From assembly GCA_964424685.1 (NCBI GenBank), contig CAYRJH010000005.1:1-38787 (forward strand): 38,787 nt of DNA. The letters are read 5' to 3'. Under the pieces are notes generated by a model. It worked only from the letters and a program-made list of their open reading frames with translations. It ran no database searches and was not told the origin of the DNA. Both the position numbers and the translations under genes were made by a program. Source of the DNA: an uncultured Actinomycetota bacterium. GTDB taxonomy: Bacteria > Actinomycetota > Humimicrobiia > Humimicrobiales > Humimicrobiaceae. Positions within the stretch are counted from its first letter, which is position 1, and each line of letters starts with the position of its first letter. Below, piece by piece: positions 1 through 10,681 of this stretch.

Positions 1-38
1 ATTGATATTACAAGTAGCCATAAAATTATTTTTTTCAT
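1..38 (-). CDS. Partial CDS: the N-terminal 12 codons (MKKIILWLLVIS...) of an unidentified, probably exported protein that continues past the left window edge
   Basis: A minus-strand ATG at 38-36 is preceded by AAAGGA with a 7-nt spacer. The Lys-rich start followed by a hydrophobic run resembles a signal peptide. The fragment is far too short to identify. Confidence 0.25.
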   Translation of the reverse strand, partial: MKKIILWLLVIS

Positions 39-92
39 TATTATATCCTTTCCTGTTTTACTTTTAAAACAGATTTTAATAAAATTACTCAC

Positions 93-146
93 GAGATTTG
101 TTTACTTTTGGCCAAGTCTCAAGTGCCTAAAAGTTAGACAAATCTC
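93..146 (-). terminator. Long imperfect stem-loop between the end of the LacI-family gene and the next gene; possible intrinsic, perhaps bidirectional, terminator
   Basis: GAGATTTGT (93-101) pairs with ACAAATCTC (138-146). The stem extends inward with a few mismatches (TTACTTTTGG / CCTAAAAGTTA). A T-rich tract follows on the + strand (147-180); the T-run on the - strand is weaker. The structure lies about 50 nt downstream of the regulator stop codon. Confidence 0.3.
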
Positions 147-197
147 CTTTCTTTTAAATTGGTTTCTTTTTTCTTTTTTTACCACCTCCTAAAATCT

Positions 198-1295
198 TTA
201 TTCCAATAATAAGTCAGTCGGTACCTCCTTTCTCCTAACCCCAGAATTACCAATTTTTTTACAGGATTGCCTGATAACCAATTCTGGCCTTAAAATAACT
301 CTTCTTAATTCTTTATCAGACCTATTTTCCAATATCCCTAATAACTGTTCTGCAGCTAACTTACCCAGCAAATACTTAGGCTGCCTAATCGTAGTAAGGG
401 GAATCTTGATCATGGATGAGATCTCAATATTGTCATAACCAATAACAGAAATATCCTCGGGTATTTTAATACCTTTATCGTTAATTTCTTCAATTGACTT
501 AATTGCTAAATAATCATTGCCCGAAAATATTGCCGTAATATTTTCTTGTCTGCTTAATATATAGCTAATTATACCCTCAATATTATATATACCGCCTGTT
601 TTAATAAATTTCGTCGGTACAAAATTATCGGTATTATTAATTTCATAACGTTTAAGTGTATCCATAAATCCCCTGAATCTCTCTCTCAAGCTAAGTAACT
701 TTCTATTTCCAAGAAAAAATATATTCCTATGACCAAGCTTTATAAGATACTCCGTAGCCAACTCTGCCCCATAATAGTCATCATTAACAACATAACTTAC
801 ACCCGGAATATCCAGTTTGCAGTCTATTAATAAAAATGGGATTCCTTTATCCCTGAGATCCTCGATTGTTTTCATTTTTAATTCGACTGTTGTAAGAAGA
901 AAACCATCTACTCCTCTTTCAATAAGTGTTCTTATATCCCTCTCCTCAAGATTTATGTCATTATTGGAGTTGCATAATATTACATTATAATTTTTTGCTT
1001 CTGCTGCATCGATAACTCCTTTAGCAACTCTTGAGTAGAATGGATTCTCTATATCCGCTAAAACCAGGCCAATAGTTCTGGTTTTGTTAGTCCTTAGACT
1101 CTGAGCTATAATGCTTGGCTTATATTCCTCTTTTTTAATAATTTCCGTAACCCTGTCTCTTGTATTCTTACTTACAAAAGCACTATCTGAAAGAACTCTT
1201 GATATCGTTGTCCTTGAGACCCCTGCTAATTCTGCTATCTCTCTGATTGTCATTTTTTTGAAGCTTTTTTTTGATTTTTTTAGCATCGATACCAT
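198..1295 (-). CDS. LacI/GalR-family transcriptional regulator
   Basis: It has an N-terminal HTH (MTIREIAELAGVSRTTISRVLSD) followed by a periplasmic-binding-protein-like sugar-binding core. The true start is probably Met15 (nt 1253), since the first 14 codons (MVSMLKKSKKSFKK) precede the canonical HTH start. Confidence 0.9.
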   Translation of the reverse strand: MVSMLKKSKKSFKKMTIREIAELAGVSRTTISRVLSDSAFVSKNTRDRVTEIIKKEEYKPSIIAQSLRTNKTRTIGLVLADIENPFYSRVAKGVIDAAEAKNYNVILCNSNNDINLEERDIRTLIERGVDGFLLTTVELKMKTIEDLRDKGIPFLLIDCKLDIPGVSYVVNDDYYGAELATEYLIKLGHRNIFFLGNRKLLSLRERFRGFMDTLKRYEINNTDNFVPTKFIKTGGIYNIEGIISYILSRQENITAIFSGNDYLAIKSIEEINDKGIKIPEDISVIGYDNIEISSMIKIPLTTIRQPKYLLGKLAAEQLLGILENRSDKELRRVILRPELVIRQSCKKIGNSGVRRKEVPTDLLLE

Positions 1296-1356
1296 ATATT
1301 TCTTAAAAATATTTGATTTTAACCATTATTTATAGCTTAAATACATTACTATTCTC

Positions 1357-1370
1357 TGTTATCGATTCCA
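1357..1370. promoter_or_regulatory. Candidate LacI-family (cre-like) operator, possibly for autoregulation
   Basis: TGTTATCGATTCCA matches the TGWAANCGNTNWCA-type pseudo-palindrome at about 12 of 14 positions around a central CG. It lies 60-105 nt upstream of the regulator start codons. Confidence 0.25.
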
Positions 1371-1867
1371 ATAAAATATCACATCAAACTTTATATGTCA
1401 ATATCTGGAATAAGAATATTTAAGGATATTAGATCTATGAAAGGTGAGAAAATTTAACCCATTTAAAAAAATAGTTAATGGCACAGTAGACAATAATATC
1501 CATAAGCTCATCTGCTGGATGTATATATCTTTTTTCTAATTTTTATATCGGTAACTATACTAAGTTACTTTTTATTTCCTGATGCGTTTTTTAGAGGTAG
1601 ACATCCTATCGTAAGTAGATTGGAGTTTTCTCCTGCTTTATGGATTTCAACACTTCAGATATTCTGATACAATTTCATTCCAACATCTCTTATTATAGGT
1701 GTGAGTCTTATTGCATATTAATGTAGGATATCAAAGGAAAAGTTTATGCCAATTGGATATATTGCATCCTGGATACTATCACAATAGTTGCTCTTTACTG
1801 TCCTTACCCCATTCTTTATTGCAGTTTTTAAGTTAGTATTAAATGTTTTAATATAGGTCAGCATGCC

Positions 1868-3049
1868 TCAGGGGCGTTTTAATTTAGAACGAGTTGTATT
1901 TACCCAGTATTTGTCTGTTTCATCCCCCCGCAGTTCAAGCGCTTTTTCAAAATAGGGCAGCGCTTCTTCATAGCGGCCCATGTTATATAAAGTATTACCG
2001 ATCCAGTTATAATTTGATATATTTGTTTTATCATCCTGCATCTCAAGCGATTTTTTAAGGTAAGGCAGCGCTTCTTCATGGCGGCCCAATCTGGAGAGAG
2101 TGGTACCGAGCCAGTTGTAGTCTATCCAGCTACCCTGCAGCTTAACCGCTTTTTCAAAATGAGGCAGTGCTTCTTCGTAGCGGCCCATGTTAGAGAGCGC
2201 AGTGCCGAGCCAACTGTAGTCTATCCCATCACCCTTTATTTTAACCGCTTTTTCAAAATAGGTCAGCGCTTCTTCGTGTCTACCCATATTGGTGAGCGTG
2301 GTGCCCAGCCAGCTGTAGTTTGATATATTTGTTTTATCATCCTGCATCTCAAGCGATTTTTTAAGGTAAGACAACGCTTCTTCGTAGCGGCCCAATCTGG
2401 AAAGATCAACACCGAGCCAGTTGTAGTCTATCCAGTTACCCTGCAGCTTTACCGCTTTTTCAAAATAGGGCAATGCTTCTTCGTAGCGGCCCTGGTTAGA
2501 GAGCTCTCTTCCTTTACTGGCGGCATCTTGTCCGGTTAGAGTATCTTTAGCCTTGTCGACGGTACTTTGAAAATTGGTAAAATCACCTGATTCGCGAAGT
2601 AATTTCTTATATTCTTCACTTTCCATATTTTCTTTAGCATCAATTTTTTTATTAATTAATGTCAATATTATTTCAATAAGTTTTTTAATATGATTTTCCA
2701 TCGGTTTCGTAAGAGCATCCTGCCAATGCGTATTTAACAAATAATATTTCATCGCACCTTTAGGCTCGATATCTTCAATTCTGAAAGGAATGACAGTTAC
2801 TTCAGAATTAAATGCAAGAGATATTTCTCTTGATACCTGTCTGGAATTATTTGAGTATGAAGAAAATATAAGAATCAATAGTTTACTTCGGGTAATTGCA
2901 CCTTCAATGGATTCAGCCCAGTCCAGCCCCGGCAGAATATCTCTGGGGGCGATCCAGCACCTTATTTTAGCAGCTTCAAGTGAAGCGCAGACTGCATCTG
3001 CTACTAATTTATCTTTTGTAGAATATGAAATAAATACATCATGAGCCAT
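1868..3049 (-). CDS. TIR domain protein with a C-terminal array of six TPR-like repeats (393 aa)
   Basis: Residues 3-125 carry bacterial TIR_2-type motifs: DVFISYSTKDK, IRCWIAPRDILPG, LILIFSSYSNNSRQVSREISLA (putative catalytic Glu75) and IPFRIEDIEP...HWQDA. Residues ~175-385 hold six repeats of 33/36 aa with the pattern GRYEEALPYFEKAVKLQG-WIDYNWLG. A GAGGA Shine-Dalgarno sits 9 nt upstream of the ATG, and the gene starts 33 bp downstream of the preceding gene. Confidence 0.85.
   Translation of the reverse strand: MAHDVFISYSTKDKLVADAVCASLEAAKIRCWIAPRDILPGLDWAESIEGAITRSKLLILIFSSYSNNSRQVSREISLAFNSEVTVIPFRIEDIEPKGAMKYYLLNTHWQDALTKPMENHIKKLIEIILTLINKKIDAKENMESEEYKKLLRESGDFTNFQSTVDKAKDTLTGQDAASKGRELSNQGRYEEALPYFEKAVKLQGNWIDYNWLGVDLSRLGRYEEALSYLKKSLEMQDDKTNISNYSWLGTTLTNMGRHEEALTYFEKAVKIKGDGIDYSWLGTALSNMGRYEEALPHFEKAVKLQGSWIDYNWLGTTLSRLGRHEEALPYLKKSLEMQDDKTNISNYNWIGNTLYNMGRYEEALPYFEKALELRGDETDKYWVNTTRSKLKRP
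1895..2527 (-). repeat. In-frame tandem coding repeats (TPR-like units), including a 306-bp (3-repeat) duplication of high nucleotide identity
   Basis: The segment from ~2013 is repeated from ~2319, an offset of 306 bp. The first 52 nt are identical and I hand-counted about 17 differences over ~237 nt. A further partial copy lies at ~1895-2010. Confidence 0.8.
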
Positions 3050-3082
3050 AATATATATTCCTCATCTAAATTAAATAATGTA

Positions 3083-5749
3083 TTATCGCTTAATCTCTTT
3101 GTTTAATTTAATCATGGTATACCCGGCTTTTGCAAGAATTTTATTAATGCCTTTTACCAGAGTACGGTCTTTTTCCTTCTCACTTTCAGAAAGCTTTTCC
3201 CAGGATATAAGACATTTATGCAGTTTTGCTGTCTTATCAGTTTTTTTTGCATAATGCCATCCATTATTAAGCTTTTCCTGCACCCATCGCTCATGTTCCA
3301 TCTTTGCCAGTTTGTCGATTTCATCATTTTGAAATTTACCCGGAGTCTCATTACCTCTGGTTTGAACCATTGCATATCCAACACTTGCCAGTTTATTAGG
3401 GATATCACTGACATTATTCCGGTTGTTTTCTTTATTATCTTCAGATAATTCAATATAGGGTTTAAGTAAACTATGTTCTTTTTTGCTATTTTGTGTTACC
3501 GGCCCATACTTATATCCTTTCGCAGTCAAATCTTCACAGAATACATCATGCGCCGCTTCCGCAAGTTTTTCCAGAAGATTTTTATTAAGCTCCATACGAT
3601 GCATTAGGGTATAAAAATCCTGGCCGTCTGCATGCAAATTCAATTGCGCTTCAGAAGGTATGCTTGAAGGCTCAAAGCTTGTCTTGCCTGACAGCTGACT
3701 TATGGAAACAATTGTCTCCATAGAGCGCGCTCCATGCTTATATTGCCTGGTTAATAAAAAGGCACGAAGCACTCCTTCGTCAATGCTTGTAATTCTTTTC
3801 CCTCCATAACTGTGCAGAATCTGGGGTTCGTTGCGGTCAAAGATTGACCGCAGGACAATTGCACGCCGGATGATATAGTAGGGATCTTTTATTTGCCCAT
3901 AGTCGTCTTTATTTTCCTGCCGGTTTGGGCCGAGGATATTTAAAAATCCTTTCAGGCGGCTTATAAAATCAGGTAGTTTTACCGCTCCGCTTTCCCTCTC
4001 GCTAATATTTGTCCCAAATGTTTCCATACTGTGGCTTGTCCCTCCTGCAAATACAAAAATACCCCTGCCTATATGGTGGGTCATTTGCCCTTCCTGGAAT
4101 TTTCCATCTTGCATGGGGGCAAGAAAATACCGCAGCCAGCCCAGAGTTTGATTTTGCAGAGAAGTATCAAATTCATCCCAGAAAACAAGTGATATCTTGC
4201 CAGATAACGCCCTGTCACGTATTTGATGATAGGCATCAAACAAATCCCCGGGTCCTCCAAGCTGTGAAAGATTAAAAGTTATCTCCTCAATTTCCCCCTG
4301 CCGTACCGAACTTGCTACCTGCTTTACTGCGAATGATTTGCCGGAGCCCGGCGGACCAAAGACCGCTATCGATAAAGGCGTTTTCTGATAACTCTCGCAA
4401 TATTCATTAATGAGATTGCTAATATTGTGTAAAGCTTCGATCTCCCTGCGGTCTATTGTCTGGAGTTTGCCAAACTTCCCCATAGGCACTTCAGGTAAAG
4501 CATGTTCCAGACCTTCGCGTACAATCAGCCTTGCTATATTCTCAAGAGAATCAGGACTTTTATCTTCAAGTATTGCCCAGAAACGGTCTGGTTCTTCAGG
4601 AGAAGTTTCGGAAAGTGCCTGTGCAGGATTTTTAATTGGCACAACTGATAAAAAACTGCAATCTTCTTCTAATTTAGCTGCTACCCCGGCTGCCGGGAAA
4701 GCCAGATTTATTTTCTTTGTTTCATTGCTGGCACGGCCATATCCCATTATATGAAGAAATCGCATAGCGCTGATCCCTGATTGAATGCCACGGGACATGT
4801 CTGGTTCCGGGGTATCCAGCATCAGCTCCCGGGCAATACTGCCGGCAAGACACGATGTATAGCCAATCATATATCCTTTATAACGGTTTTCCCATTCACC
4901 TTCCATGGCAGACGGGTCAAAAAAAAGAATGGCATCCGGTGAAGAATCTGTTTTTTTAGAAAGAAGAGCTGCGCCTGCCATATCAAAAGATATGATTATA
5001 TGAGCGCACTGCGTAATCTCATTTATATGAGGGTTATATAGAAGTTCCCACATCAAGTCCTGTGCAGTCCGTTCCCATGATACCTGGCGGCTTATGTGGA
5101 CCTGGCTGCGGCGCAGATCATCAGCTGTTATAATCACTATTAGCCGGTCTGCATGATTTTGTAAAAGATGATCCCACAGTTTACCCTGCACCACTGGCCA
5201 GGCCATTTTAAGGATAATCCAGGGTTTTGAGTTGCCCCTGGAAAGAGATTGGGGCCAGTATTCCTGGGCATCGCGGAACCCAAGAGCAGCATCATCCAGG
5301 ATTACAAGGTCCGGATTTACTGGATCGTCAACAACTTTTTTCCAGCTATCTGACGAAGACATACCATCATATGCCTTGCATAAACCTAAAAATTCCTGAA
5401 CCCGCCATACTTTTTCTCCCTTATTAGATGCATGCACATCTATTTTAAAAGGTGCCCATATAGCATAAGAATGATGGAAGTGGTTGTTACAGGGATTTAT
5501 AGGGCTTCGAGGTGCAGAGATTTGCCTGACTGTAATACTGGTTTGCCCTGTTTGATTTAAGTTTCTGGCAATACTTTTAACAAGGTCAGCCAGCATGGTT
5601 ACACCCCCTATCTGGCAAAATGAGGTGGTTAAGTTCTCTGCATTCCATACGTTCATAATGACATCTGCCCGCCGCACTCTGGCTATATTCCAATCAATAG
5701 TTACATCTCCTGTAACAACTACAGTCTTTGTATTTTTTTTCTTATTCAT
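3083..5749 (-). CDS. Large multidomain ATPase (888 aa): unassigned N-terminal alpha/beta domain (~aa 1-350), AAA+ ATPase (~aa 425-690), two C-terminal RyR-type repeats (~aa 722-795 and 806-880)
   Basis: AAA+ motifs are Walker A AVFGPPGSGKS (aa 462-472, nt ~4334-4366), Walker B LVFWDEFD (aa 521-528), IFVFAGGTS (sensor-1 region) and KHGARSMETIV (sensor-2-like). The RyR repeats read LAEAAHDVFCEDLTAKGYKYGPV..KEHSLLKPYIELSEDNKENNRN...LASVGY and LAKMEHERWVQEKLNNGWHYA...KLHKCLISWEKLSESEKEKDRT...LAKAGY. The N-domain alternates hydrophobic strand-like stretches (VVVTGDVTIDW, LVILDDAALGF, WIILKM, LIVIITADD, HIIISFDMAGAALL, AILFFDP), which is reminiscent of ribokinase/PfkB-like folds. That last point is inference only. 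Confidence 0.8.
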   Translation of the reverse strand: MNKKKNTKTVVVTGDVTIDWNIARVRRADVIMNVWNAENLTTSFCQIGGVTMLADLVKSIARNLNQTGQTSITVRQISAPRSPINPCNNHFHHSYAIWAPFKIDVHASNKGEKVWRVQEFLGLCKAYDGMSSSDSWKKVVDDPVNPDLVILDDAALGFRDAQEYWPQSLSRGNSKPWIILKMAWPVVQGKLWDHLLQNHADRLIVIITADDLRRSQVHISRQVSWERTAQDLMWELLYNPHINEITQCAHIIISFDMAGAALLSKKTDSSPDAILFFDPSAMEGEWENRYKGYMIGYTSCLAGSIARELMLDTPEPDMSRGIQSGISAMRFLHIMGYGRASNETKKINLAFPAAGVAAKLEEDCSFLSVVPIKNPAQALSETSPEEPDRFWAILEDKSPDSLENIARLIVREGLEHALPEVPMGKFGKLQTIDRREIEALHNISNLINEYCESYQKTPLSIAVFGPPGSGKSFAVKQVASSVRQGEIEEITFNLSQLGGPGDLFDAYHQIRDRALSGKISLVFWDEFDTSLQNQTLGWLRYFLAPMQDGKFQEGQMTHHIGRGIFVFAGGTSHSMETFGTNISERESGAVKLPDFISRLKGFLNILGPNRQENKDDYGQIKDPYYIIRRAIVLRSIFDRNEPQILHSYGGKRITSIDEGVLRAFLLTRQYKHGARSMETIVSISQLSGKTSFEPSSIPSEAQLNLHADGQDFYTLMHRMELNKNLLEKLAEAAHDVFCEDLTAKGYKYGPVTQNSKKEHSLLKPYIELSEDNKENNRNNVSDIPNKLASVGYAMVQTRGNETPGKFQNDEIDKLAKMEHERWVQEKLNNGWHYAKKTDKTAKLHKCLISWEKLSESEKEKDRTLVKGINKILAKAGYTMIKLNKEIKR

Positions 5750-5805
5750 TGATAAATACCCCCATACTTATAGTAATATGGTTAAATTTTAATAACATTA
5801 AATCA

Positions 5806-5825
5806 TGCATATTTGCAATATTGCA
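5806..5825. promoter_or_regulatory. Candidate operator upstream of the ATPase/TIR operon: three TGCA cores 8 bp apart, including the perfect 12-bp palindrome TGCAATATTGCA
   Basis: The sequence TGCATATTTGCAATATTGCA lies at 5806-5825, with the palindrome at 5814-5825. It is 57-76 nt upstream of the ATG at 5749, inside the divergent intergenic region. Confidence 0.2.
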
Positions 5826-6057
5826 TCCAGTAGTTCATTATTCTTTTCTGGTTTCTACAGTTTTATTAACATTTCTGGATAATAATATCATATTTATTAT
5901 TTTTCTTTAAAACCTATATTTTTTGGAAAATGTACGCTATGATCTATTATATTATTATTGCCATACATTGTTACCTATAATAAAGCAATAATAAATACCT
6001 GGCTTCTATGTTGGCGGCCAAAAGATTAAATAATGAGGTAAGGACATTATCGCCCCC

Positions 6058-6086
6058 TTGACAATACCTATAACTAATAATACACT
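6058..6086 (+). promoter_or_regulatory. Candidate sigma-70-type promoter for the RRM protein gene
   Basis: TTGACA (6058-6063), a 17-nt spacer, then TACACT (6081-6086). This would give a leader of about 115 nt ending in AGGAGG 6 nt before the ATG at 6207. Confidence 0.3.
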
Positions 6087-6206
6087 TAAACCCTCTATTT
6101 TGTTTAATGATATTTTAATTAAGAGCAGGTCACTACTTTCTATTACCTCTCCAAAAGAAATATTAAGAAGATTATAGGGAAATAATATTTTTTTAAGGAG
6201 GTAAGA

Positions 6207-6473
6207 ATGCAAGGTAGCAAACTATATGTTGGAAATTTCGGATACTCCACAATTGATTCACAATTGGAAAAACTGTTTTCTCCATTTGGACAGATTAAGA
6301 GTGTTACTGTCATAGGAAACAAGGGTTTTGGATTTGTTGAGATGTCAAGCACATCAGAAGCTGAAAAAGCAAAAGAAGCTTTAGATGGTTCAGACTTTGA
6401 AGGACGCACTTTAAGAGTTGACGAAGCTCGTCCGCAAAGCAGCAGGCCAGAAAGAAACTTCAGGAGATATTAA
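6207..6473 (+). CDS. Small RRM (RNP-1) type RNA-binding protein (88 aa)
   Basis: RNP2 motif KLYVGNF and RNP1 motif KGFGFVEM are present, with a typical ...GRTLRVDEARP tail. A strong AGGAGG RBS precedes the start. Confidence 0.9.
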   Translation: MQGSKLYVGNFGYSTIDSQLEKLFSPFGQIKSVTVIGNKGFGFVEMSSTSEAEKAKEALDGSDFEGRTLRVDEARPQSSRPERNFRRY

Positions 6474-6487
6474 ATATAATCAAAACT

Positions 6488-6528
6488 AACTGCATACAGG
6501 TTCTTTAAAAGAACTCTTATGCAGTTTT
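6488..6528 (+). terminator. Stem-loop just after the RRM gene (first of two tandem hairpins)
   Basis: AACTGCATA (6488-6496) pairs with TATGCAGTT (6518-6526). An inner GGTTC/GAACT helix sits within it. It is followed by TTGATTT, a weak U-tract. Confidence 0.4.
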
Positions 6529-6542
6529 GATTTCTCCATATT

Positions 6543-6589
6543 AATGATTTGCTGCTTATACATTAATTTAAACAGCAAATCATTTTTTT
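6543..6589 (+). terminator. Rho-independent terminator (second hairpin)
   Basis: A perfect 12-bp stem forms between AATGATTTGCTG (6543-6554) and CAGCAAATCATT (6573-6584). It runs directly into a T-run through 6589. Confidence 0.6.
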
Positions 6590-6685
6590 AACAAATAATT
6601 AGAAAGTAATTCGATGCCAGGTTCTCTATTGCAATAAAAGGTCGACCTGCTCTATAATTTTACACACACAGGAGGACAAGTTCTT

Positions 6686-7999
6686 ATGAAATTAGAGCTA
6701 ATTGTGCCGGCTACCCGGGAAAACTTAATGAATCGAAAGAAGACACCATGCCAGCATCTTGGCCTGGCTCTGGTTGCAGCCTTAACCCCGCCAGAGGTCG
6801 AAGTCTCTTTAACTGATGAGAATGTCACAACTATTGATTACCAGAAGGAAATAGACTTAGTGGGAATAACAGCAATAACTATTACAGCGAAACGCGCCTA
6901 TGAAATCGCCGATACTTTTAGAGCGAAGGGCGTTAAGGTTATCCTGGGGGGCAGCCACCCCAGTGCTCTGCCTGAAGAGGCAAGCCAGCATGCCGATGCT
7001 GTAGTAATCGGAGAAGCCGAAGGAACCTGGAAAAAAGTAATCGAAGATTTTAAGGCAAACAAACTGCAAAAGATTTACAGCCAGCGCAAGCAGCCCAGCT
7101 TGCTCAACTTACCTTTACCCCGCAGAGACTTATTCTTCAATGGAGCGTACCTTTTCCAGAACACAATCTCAACCACCAGAGGCTGCCCCTATGCTTGCTC
7201 CTTCTGCTCTGTTACTTCATTCTTCGGCCATACTTATCGTTGCCGCCCGATAGAGGAGATCCTCAAGGAGATAGAAACATTGGATCGCAAAAAAATCATC
7301 GTTTTCGTTGATGATAATATCGTCGGTAACACCAGGTTCGCTAAAGAGCTTTTCCGCGCCCTTATACCTTACAGAATCAAGTGGATTGCCCAGGCCTCAA
7401 TAACCGTAGCAAGAGATGACGATTTACTAAAACTCGCAGCAGCCAGCGGTTGCATTTTCCTGCTTATTGGTTTTGAGACAATTAACCCCGGCAATCTTGT
7501 AGCACTTGGTAAGAAATTGAATAAGGTGAACGAATATGAAATGGTGATTAAAAAGATCCACTCTTATGGTATTGCTATCCATGGTTTCTTTGTTCTTGGT
7601 TTAGACGAAGACGATGAAGATGTTTTCGAACGAACTATCCATTTTGTCAATAAAACACGAATGGATAGCGCTCAATTTGCCTGGCTCGTGCCGTATCCAG
7701 GAACCGCTTTATTCGAATCTTTGAATAATGCAGGACGGATAATAACCAAAGACTGGTCGCAATATGAATCTAATGTTGTATTCGATCCAAAGCTAATGAC
7801 TCGGGAGATTCTGCAAAAAGGGCGTGACCGAGTCTGGCGCGAAGTATACAGCCTACCCTCTATTTTGAGGAGGTGGAGATTTATGCACCGCCATCCGCTT
7901 TCATTCTGGGTGGTGAATCTTTATTACCGCTCTTTCTGGCTGAGAAAATTCAGAACCAATAGAGCCGGCAAAAAGTCCGAATCTCCAGTTTGCTTCTAA
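6686..7999 (+). CDS. B12-binding-domain radical SAM protein (class B rSAM, substrate unknown)
   Basis: The N-terminal domain is cobalamin-binding-like (LVGITAITITAKRAYEIAD..GVKVILGGSHPS). The radical SAM cluster motif is RGCPYACSFCSV (CxxxCxxC). An AGGAGG RBS precedes the start. Confidence 0.88.
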   Translation: MKLELIVPATRENLMNRKKTPCQHLGLALVAALTPPEVEVSLTDENVTTIDYQKEIDLVGITAITITAKRAYEIADTFRAKGVKVILGGSHPSALPEEASQHADAVVIGEAEGTWKKVIEDFKANKLQKIYSQRKQPSLLNLPLPRRDLFFNGAYLFQNTISTTRGCPYACSFCSVTSFFGHTYRCRPIEEILKEIETLDRKKIIVFVDDNIVGNTRFAKELFRALIPYRIKWIAQASITVARDDDLLKLAAASGCIFLLIGFETINPGNLVALGKKLNKVNEYEMVIKKIHSYGIAIHGFFVLGLDEDDEDVFERTIHFVNKTRMDSAQFAWLVPYPGTALFESLNNAGRIITKDWSQYESNVVFDPKLMTREILQKGRDRVWREVYSLPSILRRWRFMHRHPLSFWVVNLYYRSFWLRKFRTNRAGKKSESPVCF

Positions 8000-8297
8000 A
8001 TTTATTAAAGTTCTGCTTATTAAGCCAGCCTAAAAACAGGGTAAAATCTTTTAAAGTTTGCATAAGTTAAATTATATTGCCCGCTATTGCCACTGCCGTC
8101 TGTTTATTTTAAAAATTTTTTTTATAAAAGAAATAGAAAATTACAGGCAAATAACCGTTTAATACTTATGAATTTTAGAAGCAAATCCTTATGAATTAAA
8201 AATAATTGCTATTACTATTTTTAAAAAAATAGTAAAGTCTTATTATAAATATATTAAAATATTACAAATTTTATATTTTTTACAGAAAGGATGAGTT

Positions 8298-9272
8298 ATG
8301 GAAATTTTTAGCATACTACTGATTATTGCAGGACTGGTACTTCTTATTATCGGAGCAATAAATACTCTCCAGATGATTTTTATCATCGGGATAGTACTGG
8401 CAAGTGTAGGTTTGCTGCTTTTTATTTTTACAGGCTTCAGGACGGTAAGGCCCACTCAAAAAGGCATTATTGAAAGATTTGGGAAATACATAAGAACCAA
8501 GGAGCAGGGACTTACATGGATTATTCCGCTGATTGAAAAGATGTATAGAGTAAATATAACGGAACAAATGATTGACATTCCGCCGCAGATGGTTATAACC
8601 CAGGATAAGCTTAATGCATCAGTTGATGCCGTAGTTTACTACCGTATAAAAGATGTGAAAGCAAGCATTTATAATGTCGATGATCACAGGTCCCAGCTTA
8701 TGAGCCTTGCCAGGACTACACTCCGAGCAGTAATCGGAAATATGACATTAACAGATGCAAATGAAAACAGGGCCTCAATAAATGAAAAAGTTGAACTTGT
8801 CCTCGATAAGGAAACGGACAGCTATGGTGTAGAAGTGCTGCGATGTGAAATCCAGAAAATCGAACCTCCTTCGGATGTTCAGGCTTCAATGAATAATGTT
8901 GTCAAGGCTGAACAGGAAAAAATCGCTGCAAAGGATTATGCAACTGCTACGGAAACAAAGGCTGACGGTGAAAAAAGAGCTGAAATCAAGAAAGCTGAAG
9001 GTATAAAACAGGGCCTGATACTTTCTGCAGAAGGAAAAGGAGAAGCCATCAAGATAGTCGCAAATGCCGAAGCCGACAGGATAAAAATAGTTAATGAAGC
9101 TGCAGATAAATATTTCATTGGTAATGCGCAGGCGCTAAAGAAGCTTGAAACAGTGGAAATCGCCCTTAAAGAAAACGTTAAATTTATCCTGGATTCCGAT
9201 AAGATCACAACAATAGTAACCGATGCTGCGGGTGTTTCGCCGATACCGATGGAAAAAAAGCCGAAGGAATAA
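8298..9272 (+). CDS. SPFH/Band 7 (stomatin/prohibitin-like) membrane protein
   Basis: Two N-terminal hydrophobic helices are followed by an SPFH core (VRPTQKGIIERFGKY...GLTWIIPLIEKM...VDAVVYYRI) and an Ala/Lys/Glu-rich coiled-coil tail. Confidence 0.9.
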   Translation: MEIFSILLIIAGLVLLIIGAINTLQMIFIIGIVLASVGLLLFIFTGFRTVRPTQKGIIERFGKYIRTKEQGLTWIIPLIEKMYRVNITEQMIDIPPQMVITQDKLNASVDAVVYYRIKDVKASIYNVDDHRSQLMSLARTTLRAVIGNMTLTDANENRASINEKVELVLDKETDSYGVEVLRCEIQKIEPPSDVQASMNNVVKAEQEKIAAKDYATATETKADGEKRAEIKKAEGIKQGLILSAEGKGEAIKIVANAEADRIKIVNEAADKYFIGNAQALKKLETVEIALKENVKFILDSDKITTIVTDAAGVSPIPMEKKPKE

Positions 9273-9454
9273 CCTTAAAAATATTTATATATTAAATTTA
9301 TAGCAGTAATGACCTGCATTCAAAAAACAAATGAGGCCAGTGGCTTCTGAGTTGTTAAGCGTACAGAGCGTATACTTTTTTCTATAACCCATTTGTAATA
9401 CTAAAGCTCTGTAAGTATTTTCTTATTCTCTACACTAGATTTCCTTTTTTATCT

Positions 9455-10681
9455 TCATTGCTTTTTATCTGCAATGTCTTTTGCTTTTTGTTCAATAAGA
9501 CCAAGGTCTACTTCACCATAAGTATTTTTAGTTTCTACTGCAGCCCTTGCTACACTTACCGCAACCGCAGGCAAAACCCTCCTGTCAAACGGTTTTGGGA
9601 TAATGTAATCTTCCCTCAGGTCGCCTTCTATTATTTCTGAAATTGCTTTTGCCGCAGCGATTTTCATTTCCCTGTTTATCTCTAAAGCCCCTGCATCAAG
9701 AGCTCCCCTGAATATTCCCGGAAATGCCAGTACATTATTTACCTGATTGGGATAATCACTTCTTCCTGTAGCAATAATTTTCACTCCGCATCTTTTTGCA
9801 AGGCCGGGTTTAATTTCCGGTTCAGGATTAGCCAGAGCAAATACAATCGGACTGGTCTTCATTTTTTTTATCATATCTTCAGTCAACACATCAGCAGTTG
9901 ATACTCCGATAAATATATCGGCATCCTCCAGGGCACAGTAAAGATCGCCCTTTAAATTATTTAAATTCGTAGATTCTGCCAGTTTTCGCTTGGCCGGATT
10001 TAGATTTTCTCTTCCATTGTATATTATCCCGTTTCTATCACAGATGATTATATCGGATACACCGACATAGTTAAGCAGATCTGCAATGGATGTACCGGCT
10101 GCTCCTGCTCCGTTTATAACTATTTTTACATCCTTTATATCTTTCTTGTATATCTTTAGTGCATTGAACAATCCTGCCAGAGTTACAACAGCAGTGCCAT
10201 GCTGGTCGTCATGGAATATAAGCATATTTGTTTCTTCTTTTAACCTCTTTTCAATATCAAAACATCTCGGAGCCGCTATATCCTCAAGATTTATTCCCGC
10301 AAATGATGGCTCCAGCATTTTTATGGTTTTAACTATTGCTTCATTATCCTGGCTGTCTATACATATAGGGAACGCTGATACGCCGCCAAACTGTTTAAAT
10401 AATACACACTTCCCTTCCATAACCGGAAGCGCCGCCCTGGCTCCGATATTCCCAAGCCCCAGGACTGCAGACCCGTCGGTCACTACCGCAATCATATTGC
10501 CTCTGGATGTATATGTATTCAGTTCCCCGGGATTTTTTGCAATTACACGGCATGGTTCCGCAACGCCGGGTGAATAGGCAAGAGACAGGTCGTGTTCATT
10601 TTCGGTTTTCACCTTGCTTATTACATCAATCTTGCCCCTGTTCTTCTTATGCATTTCAAGTGCTTCATCATAAATATTCAA
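9455..10681 (-). CDS. NAD(P)-dependent malic enzyme (short form)
   Basis: Diagnostic motifs are LSLAYSPGVAEPC, VVTDGSAVLGLGNIG, INLEDIAAPRCF, FHDDQHGTAVV and INGAGAAG. Confidence 0.92.
   Translation of the reverse strand: MNIYDEALEMHKKNRGKIDVISKVKTENEHDLSLAYSPGVAEPCRVIAKNPGELNTYTSRGNMIAVVTDGSAVLGLGNIGARAALPVMEGKCVLFKQFGGVSAFPICIDSQDNEAIVKTIKMLEPSFAGINLEDIAAPRCFDIEKRLKEETNMLIFHDDQHGTAVVTLAGLFNALKIYKKDIKDVKIVINGAGAAGTSIADLLNYVGVSDIIICDRNGIIYNGRENLNPAKRKLAESTNLNNLKGDLYCALEDADIFIGVSTADVLTEDMIKKMKTSPIVFALANPEPEIKPGLAKRCGVKIIATGRSDYPNQVNNVLAFPGIFRGALDAGALEINREMKIAAAKAISEIIEGDLREDYIIPKPFDRRVLPAVAVSVARAAVETKNTYGEVDLGLIEQKAKDIADKKQ

Follow-up and report, generated by a model that had tools for sequence, protein, structure and literature searches.

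Isomers of cyclic ADP-ribose (cADPR) derived from TIR domains are immune messengers in bacteria, plants and animals. We describe here a gene for a TIR-TPR protein and the ATPase gene directly upstream of it, which lie in a stretch of 38,787 nucleotides from an uncultured Actinomycetota bacterium (contig CAYRJH010000005.1 of assembly GCA_964424685.1); this whole stretch is called the window in the following. The closest described systems are those of Thoeris. The survey of Yirmiya et al. 2025, which required enrichment beside defence genes, presents types I-XI and 29 predicted types, and SLOG and SLATT are the cADPR-responsive modules in types I and VII (10.64898/2025.12.03.692087). Its text and its text-form supplementary tables contain no RyR (ryanodine receptor) domain, no PF02026 and no TrkA effector (10.64898/2025.12.03.692087). 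RyDEP, a mycobacteriophage RyR-domain protein described in a May 2026 preprint by Lopez Rivera et al., cleaves 2'/3'cADPR via H75, W78, H100 and D117, with H75 and D117 as the catalytic dyad, W78 stacked against the adenine and H100 in contact with the phosphates (PMC13232231). Six of eight other phage PF02026 proteins bind the 2'/3'cADPR signals of Thoeris, some of them as nanomolar sponges; the preprint covers viral proteins only (PMC13232231). In animals, crystals of RyR3 Repeat12 have AMP-PCP or ADP bound, with the adenine stacked on W880 and the phosphates in contact with K884 (PMC12627627).

With moderate confidence we read the gene pair of the window as an operon for TIR-based nucleotide signalling in the manner of Thoeris, in which the partner of the TIR protein, not catalogued before, combines a ribokinase-like domain, an AAA+ core and a tandem RyR. 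The features of the pair are the following (aa, amino acids; pLDDT, predicted local distance difference test of the AlphaFold2 model):

1868..3049, minus strand: TIR-TPR gene, ATG start, 393 aa plus stop (open reading frame, Pfam TIR_2 and TPR families, AlphaFold2 model)
2654..3049, minus strand: TIR domain, aa 1-132 (Pfam TIR_2 match at aa 5-112, 77.4 bits against a cut-off of 28; E75; BB-loop RDILPG)
2825-2827, minus strand: codon of E75, the Glu at the catalytic position
2534..2653, minus strand: flexible charged linker, aa 133-172 (pLDDT 48-67)
1871..2533, minus strand: six-repeat TPR superhelix, aa 173-393 (repeats near the TPR consensus; families TPR_1, TPR_2, TPR_8 and TPR_12; Pfam matches at aa ~175-385, with 151 bits in six stretches for TPR_1)
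3050..3082, minus strand: intergenic spacer of 33 bp with the ribosome-binding site GAGGAA before the TIR-TPR start
3083..5749, minus strand: gene of the 888-aa protein with a ribokinase-like domain, an AAA+ core and two RyR domains (open reading frame and Pfam)
4625..5749, minus strand: ribokinase/PfkB-like fold, aa 1-375 (AlphaFold2 pLDDT mostly 80-96; Foldseek)
3599..4432, minus strand: AAA+ core and lid, aa ~440-717 (Pfam AAA; invariant motifs; weak profile matches in the Protein Data Bank, PDB)
3356..3598, minus strand: RyR repeat 1, aa 718-798 (Pfam RyR and alignments; ligand-site positions H734, F737, H759, N776)
3098..3340, minus strand: RyR repeat 2, aa 804-884 (H819, W822, H844, D861; HMMER, Foldseek, alignments)
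5946..5974, minus strand: promoter-like site GTAACA-17-TATAAT, ~200 bp upstream of the ATPase start (consensus scan only)

The AlphaFold2 model of the TIR-TPR protein, built from 40 sequences, has a mean pLDDT of 88.5. Residues 1-132 adopt a flavodoxin-like fold (pLDDT >90), the linker at ~133-170 is of low confidence, and 12 helices make up six TPRs at aa 173-391. Neither in Pfam nor in the model is there an NTPase or P-loop domain in the 393 aa. A preliminary description, made from the letters and the open reading frames, had seen a TIR and TPR protein with no NTPase on its chain; the reading frame, Pfam and the model uphold this, and its sequence statements all hold. The linker that it proposed is present, although the helix 117-132, which it had counted as linker, is the last helix of the TIR domain. 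The closest Foldseek matches of the model are consensus-TPR, OGT and APC TPR structures; this search returned TPR structures only and no TIR-specific structural neighbour. In the TPR-coding DNA, positions 2035-2504 form a degenerate tandem repeat with a period of 99 and 4.7 copies.

The TIR domain belongs to a very large and well conserved clade (1,172 matches among 1,311 scored candidates, mostly at 45-60% identity). E75, which stands in the motif SREIS, is invariant across 36-40 aligned members of the clade, as are C31, P35, R36, S63, S69, H108, W109 and P116. In alignments it falls on the conserved Glu in the TIR domains of TIR-STING 6wt6 (KFEM), TLR1/6 (HYEL) and PdTIR 3h16 (KELD). A Glu at the catalytic position and a BB-loop, both of which the preliminary description had wished to see confirmed by alignment, are present. 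With E75 invariant and the BB-loop present, the TIR domain looks catalytically competent as far as its sequence tells, and the active NADase or cyclase supposed at the outset is still plausible. Between orthologues the linker is the least conserved segment of the protein (78-84% identity). The TPR part diverged more than the TIR part (82-92% vs 88-94% identity); this gap is small and comes from three orthologues, and it was dropped as a sign of an arms race.

In the upstream protein the N-terminal domain is similar to HldA (4e8z), the ribokinases 6ilr and 5byc and the tagatose-6-phosphate kinase 3q1y (Foldseek, E ~1e-8, best ~5e-9, target template-modelling (TM) score 0.50-0.56). Its G48-G49 dipeptide, D15 and D19 are invariant. 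The same holds for the motifs of the AAA+ core, namely Walker A GPPGSGKS (465-472), Walker B VFWDEFD (522-528) and the sensor-2-like lid motif KHGARS. The core scored 25.3 bits with Pfam AAA, over the cut-off of 21.2, and 20.1 bits with Pfam nSTAND_NTPase5, under the cut-off of 34. With a profile of the core, the PDB yielded weak matches to classical AAA proteins only (Cdc48, Mpa/ARC, Rpt1/3; E ~0.01) and no STAND structure, and in the viral structure library BFVD the ATPase matched Clp, Lon, FtsH and RFC types, with a NACHT match of low probability. Judged by these profiles the 888-aa protein is not a STAND NTPase, its core being of the classical AAA type. Thus the AAA+ protein which the preliminary description had noticed upstream is confirmed by its Walker motifs and its Pfam score, 33 bp away from the TIR-TPR gene.

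The C-terminal tandem RyR, aa 718-884 (Pfam RyR, 95.5 bits in two stretches), resembles Repeat12 of the ryanodine receptors in sequence (HMMER), and the modelled pair matches 6uhi as well as the structures of RyR3 Repeat12 with AMP-PCP, ADP or ATP (9l90, 9l9b, 6uhh), with a target TM score of ~0.6 for 6uhi, 9l90 and 6uhh (Foldseek); phage RyR structures are matched too. In repeat 2, the residues H819, W822, H844 and D861 have the spacing of H75, W78, H100 and D117 of RyDEP (+3, +22, +17). They are invariant or nearly so in the ATPase alignment and share their columns with gp87 of Arthrobacter phage Xenomorph and with TIR-linked RyR proteins. Repeat 1 carries H734, F737, H759 and N776, i.e. Phe where repeat 2 has Trp. 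W822 and K826 align with W880 and K884 of RyR3 (ungapped HMMER alignment), and both are invariant or nearly invariant. Binding of 2'/3'cADPR by the RyR family has been shown for phage homologues only; the ligand-contacting residues are conserved in the ATPase.

The two genes lie on the same strand, the ATPase gene 33 bp upstream of the TIR-TPR gene, and a terminator scan found no terminator-like site between them. The pair of ATPase and TIR-TPR occurs also in loci L001 and L091, that is, in three assemblies including that of the window. The pair of L001 has 93% nucleotide identity to that of the window and different flanks. Both genes of the pair diverge in parallel, with 82-96% identity per domain. 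The reverse test started from five members of the TIR clade that were picked solely for their long contigs. A RyR-domain gene lay within ~1 kb in three of the five, as a stand-alone RyR, a TrkA_N-RyR and a RyR + TPR-S protein, respectively. Among 80 metagenome loci encoding the TIR clade, many of them on contigs of <3 kb, 18 had a RyR gene; on contigs of at least 10 kb the figure was 7 of 17, or 9 of 17 when SLOG-like genes are counted too. The RyR architectures near the TIR clade comprise AAA-RyR, TrkA_N-RyR, the stand-alone pair, and RyR + TPR-S + SLOG-like + nucleotide cyclase. What all partners of the TIR clade have in common is the RyR domain and not an NTPase.

Two loci show how far this pairing can be reduced or joined. 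In L092, a stand-alone tandem RyR of 166 aa with its own start codon (3064-3564) lies directly upstream of the TIR gene. It has 84% DNA identity to window 2615-3591 and comes without the ribokinase-like and AAA parts. Either RyR + TIR is here a minimal pair that occurs naturally, or the locus has decayed. In L167, a single open reading frame of 830 aa (8001-10490) joins the TIR clade (211 bits) to the AAA module of the family (293 bits) and to three RyR repeats, which makes it a Rosetta-stone fusion for the two genes of the window. Its Walker A motif has lost the Lys (GPPGAGLR) and its Walker B motif reads VFFQDFD, by which the AAA site is probably inactive. At the N-terminus of the L167 protein, the TIR stands where the canonical ATPase has its ribokinase-like domain; this layout suggests that the N-terminal position is the output slot of the AAA-RyR chassis. 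A functional link of the TIR-TPR and ATPase genes is strongly supported, because the adjacency is conserved, the fusion exists and the orthologous pair is kept in three assemblies. In this respect the tie to the upstream gene that had been supposed from the window is well founded.

The ATPase has more than 1,691 homologues, conserved end to end, and at least 534 loci in species-representative genomes with 43-93% identity. The hosts are Chloroflexota, Acidobacteriota, Planctomycetota, Deltaproteobacteria, Gemmatimonadota and some archaea. No match was found in the phage collection, three distant matches only in plasmids and one partial match in IMG/VR; hence it is not a gene of mobile elements. 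For the neighbour survey, open reading frames were called in 76 ATPase loci and the neighbours were clustered and searched with hidden Markov models. TIR genes were present in 31 of the 76 loci, within 300 bp in 18, and a TIR of the window's clade (at least 100 bits) in 19. SLOG-like genes were found in 46 loci, TrkA_N-RyR in 21 and RelA/SpoT-TPR in five; 62 of the 76 had at least one of these four partners. The configuration of the window, ATPase and TIR-TPR with no other partner, is common to eight loci.

The C-terminal parts of the ATPase-linked TIRs vary widely: TPR, WD40, LRR and ConA-like behind a transmembrane helix, as well as SBP_bac_5, DctP, LVIVD and PPC. In L058, the TIR partner is of the window's clade and carries AAA_16(STAND) and TPR on its own chain. 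These variable sensors (TPR, WD40, LRR, solute-binding) contrast with the highly conserved ATPase (68% mean column identity in an alignment of 26 sequences). Receptor-like TIR partners hint at the sensing of extracellular ligands rather than phage. Same-clade TIRs with DctP, SBP_bac_5, ConA-like or LRR C-termini are found at L004 5610-8726, L056 2964-5282, L074 10691-12580 and L014 7382-9187; the L074 protein has, after its TIR, a hydrophobic stretch that probably spans the membrane, and its topology is then that of a Toll-like receptor.

The slot next to the ATPase can also be filled by a RelA/SpoT-TPR protein, with an alarmone-synthetase domain, instead of TIR-TPR, both being a nucleotide-messenger synthetase joined to a repeat sensor. 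This is the case directly downstream of the ATPase in at least three loci:

L024 10722-12788: RelA/SpoT-TPR
L034 10804-12687: RelA/SpoT-TPR
L039 10682-12718: RelA/SpoT-TPR

The SLOG-like protein, of ~190 aa, directly follows the ATPase in most of its 46 loci. Its Pfam similarities, to YAcAr, DprA and YpsA of the SLOG superfamily, are all sub-threshold, and a profile search of this family against the PDB gave noise only. Longer versions are fused to the two-transmembrane domains SLATT_1, SLATT_3 or DUF4231. On these sub-threshold matches and SLATT fusions, by which the assignment to SLOG was made, the family is probably a new branch of the SLOG superfamily. It has the motifs GxTGHR, LAEGADR and WDG..GGT (e.g. 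L013 10620-11201). Genes of both kinds, SLOG-like and SLATT, are companions of the ATPase in the same loci. The TrkA_N-RyR partner has ~600 aa with transmembrane segments, TrkA_N and RyR, and at the four ligand-site positions it reads H-W-N-N, with Asn at both the H100 and the D117 positions. A further partner type stands beside same-clade TIR genes, namely proteins of ~780 aa composed of RyR, TPR-S (PF20308), a SLOG-like domain and an adenylate/guanylate cyclase:

L112 5519-7876: RyR + TPR-S + SLOG-like + cyclase
L116 5597-7879: RyR + TPR-S + SLOG-like + cyclase
L153 1433-3772: RyR + TPR-S + SLOG-like + cyclase

These RyR/TPR-S/cyclase proteins suggest a cascade in which a TIR signal leads on to cyclic nucleotides. 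A distant ATPase homologue with 31% identity was seen in L090 (Methylobacterium sp. FF17 plasmid pA, NZ_CP107533.1), near a giant SIR2-family protein with a transposase between the two; this is another NAD+-linked neighbour.

These loci fit a Thoeris-like logic, in which a variable sensor is attached to a messenger-making enzyme, mostly TIR and elsewhere RelA/SpoT. They likewise fit conserved neighbours that place nucleotide-binding modules (RyR, SLOG) on outputs such as the AAA+/ribokinase-like protein, the TrkA_N membrane protein, the SLATT pore or the cyclase. For the window we propose the following course. The TPR superhelix of the TIR-TPR protein would bind a trigger. By this the TIR domains would be brought together, and the site around E75 would cleave or cyclise NAD+ to an ADP-ribose-type messenger, e.g. 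2'/3'cADPR, a step that we assume because the catalytic features are conserved. The messenger would then be recognised by the C-terminal Repeat12-type tandem RyR of the upstream protein, as residue conservation, the experiments with phage homologues and the genomic coupling argue. More speculatively, the ligand might control the AAA+ core and thereby the N-terminal ribokinase-like domain as the output. A ThsB-like signal generator with the TPR array as its trigger-binding part had been the second choice of the preliminary description, and it is this reading that the comparative data favour.

A wider hypothesis is that cellular RyR (Repeat12) domains are the native receptors of TIR-made ADP-ribose messengers in a widespread prokaryotic pathway that reaches beyond phage defence. 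We regard this as possible but tentative. A reach beyond defence is suggested by the many TIR partners that are receptor-like, with extracellular solute-binding or lectin-like domains, and by the position of the loci, that of the window included, among housekeeping genes. If it were true, phages would have captured their RyDEP sponges and glycosidases as copies of the host receptor, and the link between cADPR and the ryanodine receptor in animals would descend from an ancient TIR-RyR pairing.

Several observations weigh against the operon being a signalling system of this kind. No TIR gene was present within ~8 kb in 45 of the 76 ATPase loci, and the ATPase can stand alone, e.g. on a plasmid of C. 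estertheticum; it is therefore not strictly dependent on TIR. The context of the window is housekeeping and not a defence island, and the SLOG-like and TrkA_N-RyR genes that are common at other loci are absent from it. On the output side, there is no recognisable toxic effector domain in the ATPase, the ribokinase-like domain has no match to Pfam PfkB, and a catalytic Asp of the GAGD type, as in the PfkB signature DTxGAGD, was not found in it by eye. The AlphaFold2 model of the AAA core is poor, which makes it a weak test of a STAND fold. The residues of RyDEP were mapped from their spacing and from an alignment in which other RyR proteins of phages stood in for RyDEP (DyoEdafos gp78) itself, and since seven of eight phage RyR homologues bind the ligand with no cleavage, residue conservation is no predictor of catalysis. 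Finally, the direction of the information flow, from a TIR signal to a RyR reader, is for the cellular members one that we infer.

In a serious rival reading, the RyR module does not transduce the signal but breaks it down or buffers it. The RyR pair would then be a host cADPR glycosidase or sponge that sets the threshold of TIR signalling or resets it. The true effector would lie elsewhere, in the SLOG-SLATT protein or the TrkA_N channel at other loci, and in the window it would be plain NAD+ depletion. Ring nucleases play such a part in type III CRISPR systems. The module might indeed hydrolyse the signal besides sensing it, because repeat 2 retains with H819 and D861 the equivalent of the H75/D117 dyad of the RyDEP glycosidase. 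Moreover, stand-alone RyR pairs adjoin TIR genes with no output domain, and SLOG-SLATT proteins, the possible real effectors, co-occur in many loci. Yet RyR is fused to output-like modules as is typical of sensors (AAA+/ribokinase-like, TrkA_N membrane protein, nucleotide cyclase), the Asn residues at the H100 and D117 positions make catalysis by TrkA_N-RyR unlikely, and most of the tested phage homologues bind the ligand without cleavage. On balance we consider an off-switch or buffer unlikely, albeit deserving of attention.

The split NLR, which the preliminary description had placed first, is less probable still. According to it the AAA+ protein provides in trans the NTP-dependent oligomerisation switch of TIR-NLRs, the TPR array docks on the ATPase or on the trigger, and the TIR is a terminal, NAD+-depleting effector, not a signal generator. 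TPRs commonly mediate protein-protein docking, both genes are in one operon, and a natural TIR-AAA-RyR fusion exists in L167. Even the nSTAND_NTPase5 match of the ATPase, weak and sub-threshold as it is, can be counted in its favour. However, the core passes the threshold of classical AAA, and its profile matches Cdc48, Mpa and Rpt, not STAND. The ATPase is also self-contained (ribokinase-like, AAA and two RyR, 43-93% identity across phyla), an autonomous family, and the C-termini of its partners (WD40, LRR, extracellular solute-binding after a transmembrane helix) are too diverse for docking on one conserved ATPase. The same-clade partner in L058 brings its own AAA_16/STAND with TPR, and RelA/SpoT is able to replace TIR. 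Stand-alone RyR pairs and TrkA_N-RyR proteins occur with the TIR clade and have no AAA domain, and the L167 fusion has lost its Walker A Lys. This part of the preliminary description is therefore not supported. That the two genes are independent neighbours, the TIR-TPR protein being a self-contained NADase sensor-effector and the ATPase lying beside it by coincidence, is strongly disfavoured and hardly credible: many members of the very large TIR clade have no RyR neighbour and many ATPase loci no TIR gene, but the TIR genes no more than 300 bp from the ATPase in 18 of the 76 loci, the reverse enrichment on 7 of 17 long contigs, the L167 fusion and an orthologous pair at 93% nucleotide identity despite different flanks all speak against it.

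The surroundings of the pair in the window are a LacI regulator, an RRM protein, a radical-SAM enzyme, an SPFH protein and malic enzyme, and further genes encode a PP2C with a PASTA kinase, acc and fab proteins and a GGDEF protein. With a guanine-plus-cytosine content of 0.41-0.43 the pair falls inside the range of the other window genes, so that there is no sign of recent transfer. In a six-frame search, the gaps 1296-1867 and 5750-6206 contained no remnants of SLOG-like, TrkA_N-RyR or TIR genes. The first of them, from the TIR-TPR stop to the LacI-family gene, consists of 570 bp of AT-rich, non-coding DNA with no Rfam match, nor was there one anywhere in positions 1-7000. Scans of the region for promoters and terminators gave numbers of sites not over the background of shuffled sequences. 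Divergently upstream of the window ATPase lies a small RRM_1 RNA-binding gene (6207-6473, plus strand). An RRM_1 gene is also found beside the ATPase in three Anaerolineae loci (L018, L019, L022) and near the TIR/RyR genes of L081; this recurrence could reflect lineage relatedness or a real association.

Among the known systems in which TIR and TPR occur together, TIR-NLR/Avs proteins of the TIR-STAND-TPR type share with the window protein the N-terminal TIR and the C-terminal near-consensus TPR array, and the relative in L058 has the order TIR-AAA_16-TPR. The family shares with these proteins, and with the NTP-dependent conflict systems that Kaur et al. 2020 described (PMC7159879), its occurrence mainly in Chloroflexota, Acidobacteriota and similar lineages. 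In contrast to them, the window protein has no STAND module, and its neighbour is a classical AAA ATPase with ribokinase-like and RyR domains. RyR domains are mentioned neither in Kaur et al. 2020 (PMC7159879) nor in Kaur et al. 2021. In the two-gene system BcTir/BcTpr (10.1101/2023.05.26.542521), TIR and TPR modules also cooperate in one operon; there, however, each module has a protein of its own, and neither a RyR nor an AAA partner is described.

The RyR pair has two points of reference. With Repeat12 of the animal receptors (PMC12627627) it shares the tandem repeats and the pseudo-symmetric adenine-nucleotide pocket, W822/K826 corresponding to W880/K884 of RyR3. The RyR of the ATPase is, however, not part of an ion channel, and it has the Trp in repeat 2 only, with Phe in repeat 1. 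With RyDEP and the phage PF02026 proteins (PMC13232231) it shares the domain family, the pattern H-x2-W-x21-H-x16-D and the structural match. Whereas the phage proteins are small and serve the virus against host defence by destroying or sequestering the signals of the host, the RyR of the window is cellular, tandem, fused to AAA+ or, in its relatives, to other outputs, and located beside the TIR gene itself. This implies for cellular RyR domains the role of a native receptor or regulator, which is outside the scope of the RyDEP preprint. The window locus and the hundreds like it supply the host side that the preprint left open, RyR beside or fused to TIR, with AAA+, channel-like or cyclase outputs brought in by the host proteins. 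If this is true, the origin of the phage anti-Thoeris RyR proteins would be explained and a genetically tractable bacterial model of how RyR repeats recognise cADPR-type ligands would be at hand, in which it could be put to the test whether cADPR acts directly on ryanodine receptors, a matter of long dispute.

The nearest relative in kind is Thoeris. As there, a TIR with a catalytic Glu is encoded beside a protein with a putative nucleotide-binding sensor domain, the SLOG and SLATT modules of types I and VII are seen in sister loci, and the TIR protein varies in its sensor part. The differences are that the partner in the window is a ribokinase-like + AAA+ + RyR protein, that TIRs of the window type are fused to long repeat or receptor-like domains, and that the locus lies outside a defence island. 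The partner is absent from PADLOC, which gave no match for the ATPase and generic TIR and TPR matches only for the TIR-TPR protein; scans of both window proteins with PADLOC and NCBIfam yielded no system-level match. We found no description of a TIR + AAA-RyR configuration in the literature, an earlier mention in Burroughs et al. 2015 or Burroughs & Aravind 2020 being possible. Each new receptor class is a new branch of TIR-derived cADPR signalling, and the present one, if true, would add a ribokinase-like + AAA+ effector family that searches based on defence islands have missed. Set against the known systems, TIR-based nucleotide signalling is already known in kind, and it is the RyR-domain partner that had not been catalogued.

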